Assembly (NCBI RefSeq): GCF_056712565.1
Contig: NZ_CM160072.1
Length of the DNA stretch: 64,000 nt
Strand: one strand, 5' to 3'
Under the pieces are notes generated by a model that did not search any database, was not told the origin of the DNA, and saw nothing but the letters and a program-made list of their open reading frames with translations. Positions 2,409-19,345 of this stretch are shown here, in pieces. How positions within the stretch are numbered: position 1 is the stretch's first letter; every line of letters starts with the position of its first letter. A program made the position numbers and the translations under genes.

Positions 2409-4319
2409 TTACCTGGAGGATGGTATCGCAAGGAAACGAACCGCACGGGCAATGTCACGGGTGCGCGGCGCTGGCGGCAGACTGGCGAGAAACGTCGCGC
2501 CGTAAGGGCGCATCACCAGCCGATTGTCGCAAATCACTAACACGCCGCGATCGTCGGCGTCGCGAATCAATCGCCCTACCCCCTGCTTGAGAGTAATGAC
2601 CGCATCCGGCAGTTGTACTTCATCGAACGGATCACCACCGCGCAAACGGCAATCTTCCATGCGTGCTTTTAATAGTGGATCATCCGGCGAGGTAAACGGC
2701 AATTTGTCGATAATCACCAATGACAATGTATCGCCACGCACGTCCACCCCTTCCCAGAAACTGCTGGTTGCCACAAGAAGCGCGTTACCGGCGCTGACAA
2801 ATTGCTGCAACAGTTGCCCTTTGCTGGTTTCCCCCTGCAACAAAACGGGAAGCGTCATGGTAGCGCGGAACTGCTCGGCCAGATCGCGCATCATGGCGTG
2901 CGAGGTACAAAGCATAAAACAACGACCGTTGTTAGCTTCGATGATCGGTCGCAGCATTGCCGCCAGTTGCCGTGCGGAACCCGGTTGATTAGTTTGCGGC
3001 AGGTTGCGCGGCACACAGAGTAACGCCTGGCGGCTGTAATCAAAGGGGCTGGGTAACAGCAACGACTCTGCCAGTTCAATGCCAAGCCGCGAGGTGAAAT
3101 GATGCAGATCGTCGTTCACCGACAGCGTTGCTGAGGTAAAGATCCAGCTACCGGGTTTTTGCGCCATTAACTCTTTGAATTTATCCGCCACGCTGAGCGG
3201 CGTGAGAGCCAGAGTAAAATGGCGCGAAGTGCATTCGTACCAGTAGCTGTAGCCCGGCTGATTGATCTCTTTTAGCCGTTTCAGCCGTGTGCGATATAAC
3301 GTGGCGCGTTCAAATGCCGCATCCAGCAAGGCGGAACGCCCCAGCGACAGTTTCGCCACGTCATAACAAAGTTCCAGAGTGTCATCGAGCAGTAAAAATG
3401 CCCGCTGAATTTGCGGATTAGCTAACAGCTCACGCAGGTTACCGCGATAACCTGGCTCACCGAGTTGCAGGCGAAAATCCTGCGCACTCTGGGCAAGACG
3501 GTCAGCGCACTTTTGTAACTGCTGGGTGTCTTTTAATTCGGTGCGGTAGGCGATGGTGATGTCTTTTGCCAGGTCGAGCAGTTGTCGACTGGAGAGTGAC
3601 TGACCAAAATACTGGCTGGCAATGTCGGGCAGCTGGTGGGCTTCGTCGAAGATCATGACGTCAGCTTCCGGGATCAGTTCGCCAAATCCACTCTCTTTCA
3701 CCACCATATCCGCCAGAAAGAGATGATGGTTTACCACCACCACATCGGCGTCCATCGCTTTTTTGCGTGCTTTGACTACAAAGCAATCTTTATACATCGG
3801 GCAGTCGCTGCCAAGGCAGTTATCGTTGGTGCTGGTGACCAGCGGCCACGCCTGTGAATCTTCCGCCACGCTGACGCAGGTGCTGATATCACCATCGACT
3901 GTTTGATTAGACCAGGAGCGCAGCAGGATCACATCGCTTAATATTTGTACCGGCAGATCGCCGCCCGCTAGCGCCTGTTGTTCGAGACGTTCGAGGCAGA
4001 GGTAGTTTGAGCGCCCTTTCAGCAACGCCACGTTGCCCGTATATTTCAACGCCTTTGAAACCGTTGGCAAATCGCGGCTGTAGAGCTGATCCTGCAACGC
4101 TTTTGAACCGGTCGAGATAATGACTTTCTTTTTCGCCCGCAGCGCAGGGGCCAGGTAAGCGTAGGTTTTGCCCGTACCGGTTCCGGCTTCCACCACCAGC
4201 GGCTGGCCTTTTTCTATCGCCTGGGTGACGGCTACCGCCATCTGTCGCTGTGGTTCTCGCGGCTTAAAGCCTGGTATCGCTTTCGCCAACTGACCGTCTG
4301 GTGCAAAATCGTCCGTCAC
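2409..4319 (-). CDS. yoaA: DinG-family ATP-dependent DNA helicase YoaA
   Basis: 636-aa ORF; Walker A AGTGTGKT, DEAH box (IFDEAHQL), Fe-S cysteine cluster region. Confidence 0.9.
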   Translation of the reverse strand: MTDDFAPDGQLAKAIPGFKPREPQRQMAVAVTQAIEKGQPLVVEAGTGTGKTYAYLAPALRAKKKVIISTGSKALQDQLYSRDLPTVSKALKYTGNVALLKGRSNYLCLERLEQQALAGGDLPVQILSDVILLRSWSNQTVDGDISTCVSVAEDSQAWPLVTSTNDNCLGSDCPMYKDCFVVKARKKAMDADVVVVNHHLFLADMVVKESGFGELIPEADVMIFDEAHQLPDIASQYFGQSLSSRQLLDLAKDITIAYRTELKDTQQLQKCADRLAQSAQDFRLQLGEPGYRGNLRELLANPQIQRAFLLLDDTLELCYDVAKLSLGRSALLDAAFERATLYRTRLKRLKEINQPGYSYWYECTSRHFTLALTPLSVADKFKELMAQKPGSWIFTSATLSVNDDLHHFTSRLGIELAESLLLPSPFDYSRQALLCVPRNLPQTNQPGSARQLAAMLRPIIEANNGRCFMLCTSHAMMRDLAEQFRATMTLPVLLQGETSKGQLLQQFVSAGNALLVATSSFWEGVDVRGDTLSLVIIDKLPFTSPDDPLLKARMEDCRLRGGDPFDEVQLPDAVITLKQGVGRLIRDADDRGVLVICDNRLVMRPYGATFLASLPPAPRTRDIARAVRFLAIPSSR

Positions 4320-4450
4320 ACTACCCCCTGTTGATTTGAACAGGGATTATGTCAGGATGAGGGCGCTTTCGCCAGTTGAAGTGGTGACGGCGACCTCACA
4401 TTGTGGCAGTCTTTGCAGCACGAAAATGGAAGGATAATGAGGACAAAATG

Positions 4451-4795
4451 ATGACTATCGTTCGTATCGATGCTGAAGCCCGCTGGTCTGATGTGGTGAT
4501 CCACAACAACACGCTCTACTACACTGGTGTACCGGAAAACCTCGACGCCGATGCTTTTGACCAAACCGCCAACACGCTGGCGCAGATTGACGCCGTGCTG
4601 GAAAAACAGGGCAGCAATAAATCGAGCATTCTGGATGCCACCATTTTCCTGGCTGATAAAAACGACTTCGCGGCGATGAATAAAGCGTGGGATGCCTGGG
4701 TTGTCGCGGGTCATGCGCCGGTGCGCTGCACGGTACAAGCGGGTTTGATGAACCCGAAGTATAAAGTTGAAATTAAGATTGTGGCTGCGGTGTAA
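4451..4795 (+). CDS. yoaB: RidA/YjgF-family protein YoaB
   Basis: ORF-track frame 4403..4795; recognised protein begins at internal MTIVRIDAEARWS (ATG 4451). Confidence 0.8.
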   Translation: MTIVRIDAEARWSDVVIHNNTLYYTGVPENLDADAFDQTANTLAQIDAVLEKQGSNKSSILDATIFLADKNDFAAMNKAWDAWVVAGHAPVRCTVQAGLMNPKYKVEIKIVAAV

Positions 4796-5216
4796 GCTTT
4801 ATCGAAGCAAAATAAGTCAGACGATAATTTATCGATAATACTGGTCGGTTTTACATAAATCGACCAGAGATTAAGATATTACTGTTGATGCTCCTGCTAA
4901 TTCATTATTTATTTTTATAATTTCAATTTTAGCTATAAAACTAACTATATAAATAAACATAACAATGCCGTTGTGTTCGCCCTTCGATTAGCGTCTCTGG
5001 TTTTCTTTCTTAGCTGAACAATTTGGTTATAGCGTGAGAACTGACCGTTAATTTTCTCCCTCTTACTGGATAACACACCATGAGCTGCTACCTTTAAAAC
5101 ACCTGAATGTCAACAGGTTAACTCGTGCCATATCGTTATAATCCCTTTGATATTAGATGCAAATTAAGGTCATATATAGCCTTATCGATAACATGGTTAA
5201 TTTTAAGGATAAGAAT

Positions 5217-5516
5217 ATGCCTGCTGTAATAGATAAAGCCCTGGATTTCATTGGTGCCATGGATGTATCAGCACCAACACCAAGTTCGATGAATGAAAGT
5301 ACGGCGAAGGGAATCTTTAAATATTTAAAAGAACTGGGAGTACCCGCGAGTGCCGCTGATATTACGACGCGAGCTGACCTGGAAGGCTGGAACCCGGGGT
5401 TCACGGAAAAAATGGTTGGATGGGCAAAAAAAATGGAGTCTGGTGAACGCATTGTGATTAAAAATCCTGAATACTTTTCAACATATATGCAGGAAGAACT
5501 AAAAGCACTGGTCTAA
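5217..5516 (+). CDS. yoaC: Uncharacterised protein YoaC (DUF1889-like)
   Basis: ORF-track frame 5157..5516; likely start at MPAVIDKALDFIGAMD (5217); synteny. Confidence 0.7.
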   Translation: MPAVIDKALDFIGAMDVSAPTPSSMNESTAKGIFKYLKELGVPASAADITTRADLEGWNPGFTEKMVGWAKKMESGERIVIKNPEYFSTYMQEELKALV

Positions 5517-5544
5517 GTTAAATTTACATCAGCATAAATGGGTC

Positions 5545-5583
5545 AGGACGCTTTTAATCACATATGAAAAGCGTCCTTTTTCT
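5545..5583 (+). terminator. Rho-independent terminator downstream of yoaC (possibly shared with convergent yoaH)
   Basis: Inverted repeat AGGACGCTTTT...AAAAGCGTCCT followed by TTTTTCT. Confidence 0.55.
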
Positions 5584-5635
5584 CACAATCAAATAACCAT
5601 CGGCTTCTATAACGAAAGCGATACGGATAAGTGTG

Positions 5636-5815
5636 TTACTCGTCTTCATCCTCAAAACGCGCCACGATTCGCTCGCCGGAATGGTTGGCACGCAGCTCTT
5701 CTGCCACCAGCGCGATTGCCTGGCCGCTGCTCATCCCTTGAGCCATCAGTTCCTGGATCCGCTCGACAGCTTTTTGCTGCTGTTCATGGGTGAGTGAAGG
5801 TAAACCTGCAAACAT
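5636..5815 (-). CDS. yoaH: UPF0181 small protein YoaH (59 aa)
   Basis: Hand translation of minus strand: [59 protein letters not shown]; below the 60-aa ORF-track cutoff. Confidence 0.75.
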
Positions 5816-5888
5816 TGTTAACTCCTGCTAAATTGTTGGCGCTAATTATTTCATGCTACCCGGCACATAGCCAGTAGAGTCAGGACTG

Positions 5889-7250
5889 ATGAAGACGTTA
5901 TCTCCCGCTGTGATTACTTTACCCTGGCGTCAGGACGCCGCTGAATTTTATTTCTCACGCTTAAGCCACCTGCCGTGGGCGATGCTTTTACACTCCGGCT
6001 ATGCCGATCATCCATATAGCCGCTTTGATATTGTGGTCGCCGAGCCGATTTGCACTTTAACCACTTTCGGTAAAGAAACCGTTGTTAGTGAAAGCGAAAA
6101 ACGCACAACGACCACTGATGACCCGCTACAGGTGCTCCAGCAGGTGCTGGATCGCGCAGACATTCGCCCAGCGCATAACGAAGATTTGCCATTTCAGGGC
6201 GGCGCGCTGGGGTTGTTTGGCTACGATCTGGGCCGCCGTTTTGAGTCACTGCCAGAAATTGCGCAGCAAGATATCGTTCTGCCGGATATGGCAGTGGGTA
6301 TCTACGACTGGGCGCTGGTTGTCGACCACCAGCGTCAAACAGTTTCTTTGCTGAGTCATAATGATGTCAATGCCCGTCGGGCCTGGCTGGAAAGCCAGCA
6401 ATTCTCGCCGCAGGAAGATTTCACGCTCACTTCCGACTGGCAATCCAATATGACCCGCGAGCAGTACGGCGAAAAATTTCGCCAGGTACAGGAATATCTG
6501 CACAGCGGTGATTGCTATCAGGTGAATCTCGCCCAGCGTTTTCATGCGACCTATTCTGGCGATGAATGGCAGGCATTCCTTCAGCTTAATCAGGCCAACC
6601 GCGCGCCGTTTAGCGCTTTTTTACGCCTTGAGCAGGGCGCGATTTTAAGCCTTTCACCAGAGCGGTTTATCCTTTGTGATAATAGTGAAATCCAGACCCG
6701 CCCGATTAAAGGCACGCTACCACGCCTGCCCGATCCTCAGGAAGATAGCAAACAAGCAGAGAAACTGGCGAACTCAGCGAAAGATCGTGCCGAAAATCTG
6801 ATGATTGTCGATTTAATGCGTAATGATATCGGTCGTGTTGCCGTAGCAGGTTCGGTAAAAGTACCAGAGCTCTTCGTGGTGGAACCCTTCCCTGCCGTGC
6901 ATCATCTGGTCAGCACCATAACGGCGCAACTACCAGAACAGTTACACGCCAGCGATCTGTTGCGCGCGGCTTTTCCTGGTGGCTCAATAACCGGGGCACC
7001 GAAAGTACGGGCTATGGAAATTATCGACGAACTGGAACCGCACCGACGCAATGCCTGGTGCGGCAGCATTGGCTATTTGAGCTTTTGCGGCAACATGGAC
7101 ACCAGCATTACTATCCGCACGCTGACTGCCATTAACGGACAAATTTACTGCTCTGCGGGCGGTGGAATTGTCGCCGATAGCCAGGAAGAAGCGGAATATC
7201 AGGAAACTTTTGATAAAGTTAATAAGATATTACGCCAACTGGAGAAGTAA
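5889..7250 (+). CDS. pabB: Aminodeoxychorismate synthase component I
   Basis: 453-aa ORF MKTLSPAVITLPWRQDAAEFY...; chorismate-binding family C-terminal motifs. Confidence 0.9.
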   Translation: MKTLSPAVITLPWRQDAAEFYFSRLSHLPWAMLLHSGYADHPYSRFDIVVAEPICTLTTFGKETVVSESEKRTTTTDDPLQVLQQVLDRADIRPAHNEDLPFQGGALGLFGYDLGRRFESLPEIAQQDIVLPDMAVGIYDWALVVDHQRQTVSLLSHNDVNARRAWLESQQFSPQEDFTLTSDWQSNMTREQYGEKFRQVQEYLHSGDCYQVNLAQRFHATYSGDEWQAFLQLNQANRAPFSAFLRLEQGAILSLSPERFILCDNSEIQTRPIKGTLPRLPDPQEDSKQAEKLANSAKDRAENLMIVDLMRNDIGRVAVAGSVKVPELFVVEPFPAVHHLVSTITAQLPEQLHASDLLRAAFPGGSITGAPKVRAMEIIDELEPHRRNAWCGSIGYLSFCGNMDTSITIRTLTAINGQIYCSAGGGIVADSQEEAEYQETFDKVNKILRQLEK

Positions 7251-12669: not shown

Positions 12670-13131
12670 GACAAGCTCCTGCTTAAGGAATAGCTATTCG
12701 ACGCCAGAAATAATGCAGGCGTAACGACAAAATGCAAACGAAAGGTGCGGCATAAAGTGCCAGAAAGGCAGGCGTTAAAAGGCCTGATGCTGAAATGACG
12801 TCGGTGACGATCCATACTGCGGGCTACTGCCCTATACTCCATGGTTGTTAAACAGGAGTTAAACATATCAGAGACGCCTCTGATTTGGCAAAGATTTACC
12901 TTCCTTTGCAAACGAATGTGACAAGGATATTTTACCTTTCGAAATTTCTGCTAATCGAAAGTTAAATTACGGATCTTCATCACATAAAATAATTTTTTCG
13001 ATATCTAAAATAAATCGCGAAACGCAGGGGTTTTTGGTTGTAGCCCTTATCTGAATCGATTCGATTGTGGACGACGATTCAAAAACACATCTGGCACGTT
13101 GAGGTGTTAACGATAATAAAGGAGGTAGCAA

Positions 13132-15884: not shown

Positions 15885-16343
15885 ATGACAATCACGGACC
15901 TGGTACTGATTCTTTTCATCGCCGCACTTCTGGCCTTCGCGATCTACGATCAGTTCATCATGCCCCGCCGTAACGGCCCCACCCTGCTGGCAATTCCTTT
16001 GCTCCGGCGTGGTCGCATCGATAGTGTTATCTTCGTCGGATTGATTGTCATTCTTATCTATAACAACGTCACGAATCATGGCGCGCTAATAACAACATGG
16101 TTATTAAGTGCACTGGCTCTGATGGGTTTTTATATATTCTGGATCCGCGTTCCGAAGATCATCTTTAAACAAAAAGGTTTTTTCTTCGCCAATGTCTGGA
16201 TTGAATATAGCCGAATCAAAGCGATGAACTTGTCGGAAGATGGCGTGTTGGTGATGCAATTAGAACAGCGCCGGCTGTTAATCCGCGTTCGAAATATCGA
16301 CGATTTGGAAAAAGTTTATAAGCTTCTCGTTTCAACTCAATAA
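15885..16343 (+). CDS. yobD: UPF0266 inner-membrane protein YobD
   Basis: 152-aa hydrophobic [26 protein letters not shown]...; synteny. Confidence 0.75.
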
Positions 16344-16388
16344 GTTATGAATTTAGCCAAAGCTATGTTTAGTGTATTTTTAATAATC

Positions 16389-16408
16389 AGACATAGCTTA
16401 GGCTATAT
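16389..16408 (+). promoter_or_regulatory. Candidate MntR operator upstream of mntP
   Basis: Near-palindrome ACATAGCttagGCTATAT; a second half-site-like AAAGCTATGTTT at about 16358-16370. Confidence 0.4.
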
Positions 16409-16464
16409 TACCTCTTCCCTTATTTGTTTTTTATTTTAACGTTTCATTGATATATAAATCTAAA

Positions 16465-16483
16465 TGAAAATCGTTATCAATAA
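16465..16483 (+). promoter_or_regulatory. Candidate Fur box upstream of mntP
   Basis: AATGAAAATCGTTATCAAT resembles Fur consensus GATAATGATAATCATTATC. Confidence 0.35.
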
Positions 16484-16544
16484 AACAATAAAATAATATA
16501 TTCCAACAGTTGTCTTATATTCTCAAAATATGTTAAGGTTGCGC

Positions 16545-16771
16545 CCTCATTTGGGGAGTAGCTGATTTCCAGATTCCGGAAATGTACGTGTCAACATACT
16601 CGTTGCAAAACGTGGCACGTACGGACTGAACACTTTCAGTCAGGCGAGACCATATGCACATCAATCGCTATGCCTGCATGAACGCGAAAACCATCGCGGC
16701 TTGTTGTTCATGTATGCATGTTTGCTGGGGGCGATGATGTGTTTTATGGATACCCCGGTCAGGACGTTGTC
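16545..16771 (+). promoter_or_regulatory. yybP-ykoY family Mn2+ riboswitch and long 5' leader of mntP
   Basis: Conserved aptamer elements GGGGAGUAG (16553-16561) and GAGACCAUAU (about 16645-16655) directly upstream of mntP. Confidence 0.6.
16654..16737 (+). CDS. Candidate 27-codon upstream ORF in mntP leader ([27 protein letters not shown])
   Basis: ATG immediately 3' of riboswitch aptamer, open for 27 codons, stops 34 nt before mntP ATG; no strong Shine-Dalgarno seen. Confidence 0.3.
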
Positions 16772-18675: not shown

Positions 18676-19345
18676 AAACAGAACTGTACCTCGTTTAACC
18701 CGAAATCTGTTATCACATACAACGTTAATTATGGCAAGCCATTTTTAAACATGTCTCGATCAGACGCACAAATCTCGATACGTCTTCCACTTTTTTGCAC
18801 ACTTATGCAACGGAATACGCGCCGATATATCATTGTGCTTAACCTTGCCAGTTCAGGCAGATACTTAAACTGGCGTATTTTTTCTAACATAGTTCAATAA
18901 GTTCAGTTGTTCCAGGCCAGTGAGAGAAGTTATTACATAGTGCGTGCAATATCACATTTTTTGCTATGCAATGAATAAAAAGTTATATCACTTTTTCTCA
19001 TAAAACAGTCAGTTAACGGCTATCAATTACCCTAAAGAGAAGTCAATCCCCAAAGGGATTGTAAATTTAAAATAAGAAAAATTGATGAATGAGCAAAAAA
19101 ATCAAGAGAGAAACGTTTCGCTAATAAATAATACCACGCTTAATCACAAATCCGATGTAAACATCCTAATAAATTAATGAGGGAAATATCTTTTTCTGAT
19201 ATCCCGTTACGCAAATTAATAATATGATAATTATTTGAAGTCAGACCAGAGTTTTAATTTGAAGCAGCTGCACCATGACAGTGCGTATAATCAGCATGAA
19301 TTGAGTAACCCTTCAACGACGGGGTTACTCAAGATTGAGGAAGGA

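Follow-up and report, generated by a model that had tools for sequence, protein, structure and literature searches.

Why are yoaB and yoaC separated by 421 bp of extremely AT-rich DNA, and where within it do the transcription and translation of yoaC begin? The DNA analysed here, referred to as the window, is a stretch of 64,000 nucleotides in which the gene order around this locus is yoaA (2409-4319, minus strand), yoaB (4451-4795, plus), yoaC (5217-5516, plus), yoaH (5636-5815, minus) and pabB (5889-7250, plus). The gap (4796-5216) is bounded by the end of yoaB at 4795 and the annotated start of yoaC at 5217. Its insertion history, composition, motifs, hairpin covariation, promoter and leader conservation and start-codon evidence were analysed here. 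A sequence-only reading had called the gap a 421-bp, extremely AT-rich segment, and this was borne out: its GC content is 0.33, where the whole window has 0.50 and the genes on either side have 0.52-0.56. The segment 4898-4957 has a GC content of 0.10, the minimum among all 60-bp windows of the 64 kb; the fraction of such windows as GC-poor as this one is 2e-5, and its low GC is far beyond chance. The A/T string quoted in the same reading sits at 4905-4965. In MG1655, the equivalent of the gap (1893712-1894132) is likewise 421 bp long and carries no annotated feature, and the gap is 100% identical to that of E. coli ATCC 11775. Of 5426 complete E. coli genomes, 5411 carry it, most of them with an identity of 95-99%, and a contiguous copy is missing in approximately 55 of the 5411. 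Elsewhere in the window, 100-bp stretches with a GC content below 0.25-0.30 are present at 16286-16561 (down to 0.17), 18927-19270, 57203-57465, 12904-13028 and 47537-47657; these five may be further AT-rich islets or regulatory regions.

By comparing the yoaB-yoaH junction between genera, the origin of the gap may be understood. The stop codons of yoaB and yoaH are spaced by 5 bp in Salmonella, 7 bp in Citrobacter and 0 bp in Klebsiella, and no yoaC is found there. In the window, the two convergent stops enclose approximately 840 bp of low-GC DNA (4796-5635, GC 0.37), which consists of the gap, yoaC itself (encoding a DUF1889 protein of 99 aa) and the intrinsic terminator of yoaC (5545-5582, plus strand), formed by AGGACGCTTTTAAT and ATGAAAAGCGTCCT and followed by T5. 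A scan with one genome per species detected yoaC homologues in 23 species, and among the species scanned yoaC adjoins yoaB/yoaH in Escherichia only. Its neighbours in Buttiauxella, Citrobacter, Lelliottia and Kosakonia are unrelated and genus-specific (for example, fis-dusB, mug-rpoD and a dehydratase reactivase), and Klebsiella has additional yoaC sites beyond those of the other genera. Because the empty site measures 0-7 bp in three genera and yoaC lies elsewhere outside Escherichia, the segment 4796-5635 can be regarded as a genus-specific insertion, and a single-gene islet of this kind explains both the odd composition and the long gap. On this comparison, the gap is taken to be the left arm of an Escherichia-specific islet.

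No terminal direct or inverted repeats of the kind that mark a transposon or MITE were found at the ends of the islet, nor were any plasmid or phage homologues of it found; the apparent matches to plasmids were rejected because they are mislabelled chromosomes. The interval between yoaC and yoaH is 551 bp in both Escherichia sp. E1V33 and E. whittamii, compared with 119 bp, and in E1V33 it contains an ORF for a 150-aa pentapeptide-repeat protein (L006 3390-3842, minus strand). The extra ORF and the longer interval indicate that the yoaB/yoaH junction is a variable insertion point within the genus. In addition, the AT-rich gap is a target of insertion sequences. E. coli D72 (L003 3081-3845) carries IS1A in the gap and has lost the right part of the gap together with the first ~20 codons of yoaC, and strain PT62 carries Tn6330 (mcr-1) plus IS1 between yoaB and yoaC (PMC9045152).

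The genes around the gap yielded some further observations. Four of the 99 YoaC residues differ between this strain and K-12 (96% identity), whereas YoaA, YoaB and YoaH are 99-100% identical, so that yoaC evolves faster than its core neighbours. The start of yoaB carries tandem ATG codons at 4448-4453 (MMTIV...), public calls of its length being 114 or 115 aa, and the K-12 YoaB protein record stands at version 4, so that its start, too, was revised. In the DH5alpha assembly (L002 2594-3421), pabB is annotated as frameshifted, which could be a sequencing error or a strain lesion.

At the yoaB end of the gap, 46 nt past the yoaB stop codon, CTGGTCGGTTT and AAATCGACCAG, separated by 5 nt, form a hairpin with an 11-bp stem (4841-4867, plus strand). 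Its folding energy is -15.5 kcal/mol in E. coli and ranges from -12 to -18 kcal/mol across all Escherichia species, all of which retain it. In the Escherichia alignment, three pairs have undergone compensatory changes on both sides, and 86.5% of the cells are paired, compared with 23-45% after the 3' partners were slid. The locus thus has the stable, covarying stem-loop of an intrinsic terminator, whereas the U-tract that would follow the stem directly is absent in E. coli, where AGAGAUUAAG takes its place. In Escherichia sp. E1V33, the stem is flanked by A4 and T4, a bidirectional arrangement, and the T4 run is found nowhere else; the T tract after the stem is shorter in E. whittamii and in strain SCPM-O-B-8794. 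A simple terminator scan called none. Judging from the pairing and its covariation, the hairpin may serve as a terminator-like insulator of yoaB.

The AT-richest 60 bp (4898-4957) lie in the middle of the gap and contain an imperfect AT dyad (4905-4923 and 4938-4956) centred at approximately 4930. A wedge model, which behaved properly on phased versus unphased A-tract controls, predicts an intrinsic bend of 31 degrees per 31 bp; its peak at 4933 ranks among the highest 0.14% of the window. The H-NS high-affinity motif tCGATAAATT (Lang et al. 2007, PMC2094087) has a single exact match in the 64 kb, located at 4826-4835 on the minus strand. This motif is overlapped by the palindrome TTATCGATAA at 4829-4838, and a second copy of the palindrome is found 353 bp away at 5182-5191, over the -33 start site described below. 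The description of this stretch as typical of curved or H-NS-bound DNA is consistent with these hallmarks: the lowest GC content, a predicted bend and the sole exact motif all occur in lineage-restricted, inserted DNA whose GC content (0.37 for the islet and 0.33 for the gap, against 0.50) is well below that of the host. This suggests that the gap is probably a good platform for H-NS nucleation and spreading, as we infer from its composition, motif and bend. A literature search found no report linking yoaC with H-NS, and the yoaC locus is not mentioned in the 'promoter islands' paper.

The same DNA is bound in vivo by a LysR-type regulator. Connolly et al. 2019 (PMC6765310) reproducibly recovered yoaC by YhaJ ChIP-seq in both EHEC and UPEC, and it ranks among the stronger targets in EHEC. 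The peak reported for UPEC CFT073 (2045235-2045664; Table S4 of PMC6765310) corresponds to 4647-5076 of the window, and the replicate centres correspond to 4857 and 4875 when mapped via CFT073 yoaC at 2045805. The centre of the peak is thus approximately 350 bp upstream of the yoaC start codon, and the distance of 283 bp given for yoaC by Connolly et al. is consistent with the old 119-aa start. The YhaJ motif proposed by the same authors, TTATAGATAAAATTGA (4923-4938, minus strand; SI Tables S3/S4 of PMC6765310), has one mismatch in the window strain (G at 4932) and is approximately 65 bp away from the ChIP centre. No exact YhaJ box (TCA-N7-TGA, within T-N11-A) occurs in 4700-5300; two matches with one mismatch are present there, a number in line with the background rate of 5.3 per kb. 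The sequence TTAAAAnnCCTGAAT occurs twice, at 5094-5108 in an Escherichia-conserved block upstream of the promoter and at 5458-5472 inside yoaC; both copies match 13 of the 16 positions of the YhaJ site reported for the yhaJ promoter, TCAAAATTCCTGAATG, which may be chance. A second regulator, YeiE, was reported by Gao et al. on the basis of ChIP-exo to bind upstream of RNA polymerase at yoaC, with activation. It is plausible from this arrangement that silencing by H-NS would be relieved by the LysR-type activators YhaJ and YeiE.

The published binding data also bear on whether the AT-rich middle of the gap has any role at all. It could be a functionless spacer, the decaying remnant of a larger islet, with only the proximal ~75 bp being of consequence. 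Between Escherichia species this middle part shows rapid turnover with numerous indels, and Escherichia sp. MOD1-EC7003 has lost the AT-rich block, which is therefore dispensable in at least one lineage. In other genera, only ~80-110 bp of conserved or available DNA lie upstream of yoaC; the extra gene in the same islet of a sister species fits a larger ancestral islet; and AT-rich DNA readily gives rise to spurious start sites and ChIP signal. On the other hand, the YhaJ peaks were reproduced in two pathotypes, YeiE binds upstream with activation, and a GC-poor block (with a minimum GC content of 0.17-0.22 in sister Escherichia species) stays in place in five lineages despite the turnover of the sequence itself. 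We therefore consider the spacer explanation unlikely and prefer to view the middle of the gap as a regulatory platform.

The transcription start sites of yoaC have been listed for two strains, and they are distributed over both the AT-rich DNA and the DNA adjoining the gene. Supplementary Table S5 of PMC10469882 gives the spacing between the start codon and the transcription start site as 167, 33 and 21 in K-12 (from RegulonDB 10.5, the evidence class not being stated in the table) and as 230, 208 and 198 in EDL933 (Cappable-seq). Since the gaps of the window, K-12 and EDL933 align without indels, the K-12 sites correspond to 5050, 5184 and 5196 of the window. The EDL933 sites correspond to 4987, 5009 and 5019 if counted from the 99-aa start of the current annotation, or to 4927, 4949 and 4959 if the 119-aa start was used in 2017. 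When counted from the 119-aa start, two of these sites have a good -10 hexamer just before them, TATAAT (4916-4921) and TATAAA (4948-4953), respectively, and the YhaJ ChIP centre at ~4866 would then lie near -61 of the start at 4927, the spacing looked for at a YhaJ-regulated promoter being about 65 bp. The distal start sites thus span 4927-5050 on the plus strand, with the K-12 -167 site at 5050. Both of the proximal sites, 5184 (-33) and 5196 (-21), lie past the ATG at 5157, and the site at 5196 also lies past the ATG at 5193.

A core promoter is found at 5147-5176 (plus strand), with a -35 element TTGATA at 5147-5152, an 18-bp spacer and a -10 element CATATA at 5171-5176; it predicts a start at ~5183-5184, which is the listed -33 site. 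Similarity between genera begins ~75-80 bp before the yoaC ATG, and in other genera yoaC is always accompanied by the same ~75-bp promoter and leader. The conserved pattern consists of TTGAnA, an 18-bp spacer and CATAnT, followed by GGTTAAT(T)TTAAGGA; Escherichia, Citrobacter, Kosakonia and Klebsiella share TTGAnA-N18-CATAnT, to which Lelliottia is a poorer match. The promoter had been called ambiguous in the sequence-only reading. This holds insofar as several start sites are listed (-21, -33, -167 and -198 to -230), but a promoter conserved across genera fits the -33 site. A simple promoter scan returned two promoter-like sites, fewer than in shuffled sequences. A perfect TATAAT at 5137-5142 was rejected as a -10 box, since genera other than Escherichia do not conserve it and none of the listed start sites falls near -68.

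Downstream of this promoter lies a nearly invariant 22-nt leader, GGTTAATTTTAAGGATAAGAAT (5195-5216, plus strand), which contains the invariant Shine-Dalgarno sequence AAGGA at 5205-5209, 7 nt before the ATG at 5217. The inter-genus identity of the leader is 0.82, compared with 0.71 for the coding sequence and 0.47 for its third codon positions. Such conservation of the last 75 nt across genera, together with distal start sites that would give a 5' UTR of 167-290 nt, raises the possibility that the long leader is a structured cis-regulatory RNA, such as a riboswitch, thermometer or attenuator. The folding results speak against it. The consensus fold of the conserved leader (RNAalifold) reaches only -1.1 kcal/mol and contains 0 compensatory pairs, the sequence folded singly does not outdo its shuffled versions (z = 0.18), and an Rfam scan of 4000-6200 at a permissive E-value returned only a 27-bit chance match on the yoaC terminator. 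In addition, conservation ends at about -80 even among the Escherichia species. A structured leader is accordingly very improbable. Since neither a conserved fold nor a family match was found, the conservation of the leader is at the level of primary sequence, reflecting a ribosome-binding site, an initial transcribed region and possibly an operator.

The remaining question is where translation begins. The sequence-only reading had noted that the yoaC frame is open from 5157, 20 codons upstream of the recognised start, and this is indeed the case (ORF 5157-5516, 119 aa); a second in-frame ATG lies at 5193, eight codons before 5217. YoaC might therefore be truly extended at its N-terminus, starting from the ATG at 5157 (119 aa) or from that at 5193 (107 aa). 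In all E. coli genomes that were read, the proximal 80 nt are nearly invariant and the open frame is found together with both ATGs; because the 119-aa frame stays open in this way, gene callers disagree. Public records give YoaC as 99 aa on at least 1000 contigs, as 119 aa on at least 1000 and as 107 aa on 24. The crystal/NMR construct of the Salmonella DUF1889 homologue (PDB entries 2ES9 and 2JN8) was expressed from the -8 start (MVNFKDKS...) as the 107-aa form, most homologues have ATG or GTG at codon -8, and transcripts from the distal start sites would contain both upstream ATGs.

The sequence signals for translation and their conservation, however, lead away from an extended protein. The anti-Shine-Dalgarno interaction energy is -5.9 kcal/mol for the ATG at 5217, against +0.3 for that at 5193 and +0.6 for that at 5157, so that neither upstream ATG has a ribosome-binding site. 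Three Escherichia lineages (L006, which is Escherichia sp. E1V33, L007 and L009) lack the -20 ATG, a 1-bp deletion breaks the frame of the extension in E. albertii, and an in-frame stop two codons upstream of the yoaC ATG interrupts the -8 start in Buttiauxella gaviniae. The -8 codon itself is ACG, GCG, AAG or absent in five lineages. Among the homologues, the eight upstream codons show V>D, F>I, D>E and N>S replacements, a stop and a frameshift; given such radical changes, what is conserved in this stretch is the DNA and not the codons. Moreover, all homologues align from residue 1 (MPAV) of the 99-aa YoaC, and the Pfam DUF1889 model, which spans residues 21-116 when run on the 119-aa form, likewise begins at MPAV. 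The -33 and -21 transcripts start past 5157, and the -21 transcript also past 5193. No yoaC entry was found in a published initiation-profiling supplement.

From these comparisons, an N-terminally extended YoaC appears highly improbable. The 20-codon extension MQIKVIYSLIDNMVNFKDKN (5157-5216, plus strand) is most probably non-coding, the annotated ATG at 5217 being the most likely start of yoaC. The eight extra residues of the 2ES9/2JN8 construct, which correspond to 5193-5216, are probably leader and non-native, and low-level use of the ATG at 5157 on distal transcripts is possible, the 119-aa frame being intact in E. coli. The ambiguity that the sequence-only reading saw in the true start thus applies to the annotations, in which 99-, 107- and 119-aa forms are all public, but far less to the biology, given the Shine-Dalgarno sequence, the lost ATG and frame and the homologues that begin at MPAV.

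It was also considered whether the gap hides an unannotated gene for a small protein or a small RNA. A hydrophobic 29-aa ORF (4871-4960, minus strand) ends just before the hairpin, which could terminate a leftward transcript, and a promoter-like site lies on the minus strand at 4953-4926; in K-12 and EDL933, however, this ORF continues to a length of 45 aa, and the other Escherichia species lack a counterpart. On the plus strand, a GTG-initiated 34-aa ORF (5125-5229) ends 13 nt inside yoaC and is full-length in three sister lineages, but it lies on DNA that is conserved as promoter and leader, has no Shine-Dalgarno sequence before it and does not persist in other genera. This ORF is therefore unlikely to be a gene, although it is possible that it acts as a coupled upstream ORF on distal transcripts. 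As genes, the small ORFs of the gap were rejected because they are not conserved. There is no Rfam match above noise, and the curated MG1655 record is blank at this position, though small proteins of recent annotation are listed nearby. A hidden gene is thus most improbable, and the gap is better regarded as non-coding.

In general, the explanation that we favour with good, though not complete, confidence is that the gap forms the non-coding, upstream portion of a ~840-bp, low-GC, single-gene yoaC islet exactly between the yoaB and yoaH stops, that yoaC is translated from 5217, and that the gap acts as a regulatory platform. According to this explanation, yoaC would have been acquired as a small cassette that brought along its own promoter and terminator, and in Escherichia it would have gained, or come with, ~340 bp of AT-rich upstream DNA. 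The hairpin would end or insulate the transcription of yoaB. The following ~250 bp of fast-evolving, AT-rich and predicted-bent DNA would then form an upstream regulatory platform, which the LysR-type proteins YhaJ and YeiE bind and which would fire the distal start sites and probably nucleate H-NS. The TTGATA-N18-CATATA promoter and the ~33-nt leader, with its strong Shine-Dalgarno sequence, would drive yoaC, which they accompany across the Enterobacteriaceae, and the open frame back to 5157 would be a by-product of conserved, stop-free leader DNA.

A bolder version of this explanation can be formulated, which we regard as rather doubtful. Here, promoter, 33-nt leader, yoaC and terminator would together form a self-contained cassette that landed independently at at least eight chromosomal sites across the Enterobacteriaceae and, in Escherichia, precisely between convergent stops. 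The leader GGTTAATTTTAAGGATAAGAAT would be a co-inherited operator or a target of translational control beyond the ribosome-binding site, and the TTATCGATAA copies at 4829 and 5182 would be paired H-NS nucleation sites counteracted by YhaJ and YeiE.

The finding is real but ordinary, being another low-GC single-gene islet with an AT-rich regulatory arm. Its practical value is modest, and it will not surprise specialists. It favours one of the three circulating lengths of YoaC, which is most likely 99 aa and not 107 or 119 aa, and it identifies a 'conserved hypothetical' K-12 gene as a genus-specific single-gene islet with a portable promoter. The locus offers a clean, small model of a foreign gene wired into the LysR-type regulators of its host and probably into H-NS.

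Several known systems share features with this locus. With regard to the start codon, yoaC resembles other cases in which the choice of the longest ORF leads to a mis-annotated start, since a stop-free in-frame leader allows gene callers to pick the ATG at 5157 or 5193. It differs from them in that the 99-aa start is already in place in the K-12 record, which is curated, and in current RefSeq, which leaves nothing new at stake on this point. Similarly, the hairpin is like known hairpin terminators and insulators between transcription units in its GC-containing stem, its compensatory changes and the A4/T4 flanks in E1V33, but its U-tract has decayed in E. coli. Compared to the YhaJ-activated promoters of yqjF, yhaK, ybiJ and yhhW (Palevsky et al. 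2016, PMC5031710; PMC6765310), that of yoaC has no exact TCA-N7-TGA box, and the regulator gene is not adjacent; like them, it is a ChIP-seq target and is listed among the known regulated genes. The regions of proU and bgl (PMC2094087) are silenced by H-NS, whereas at yoaC both binding and silencing by H-NS are putative, and the islet contains one 99-codon gene instead of an operon or a pathogenicity island. Like proU and bgl, however, the yoaC islet is low in GC and lineage-specific, and it carries an exact tCGATAAATT motif flanked by less specific AT-rich DNA. The likeness extends to a predicted bend, a second TCGATAA-containing palindrome near the promoter, and dedicated activators that bind the same region.
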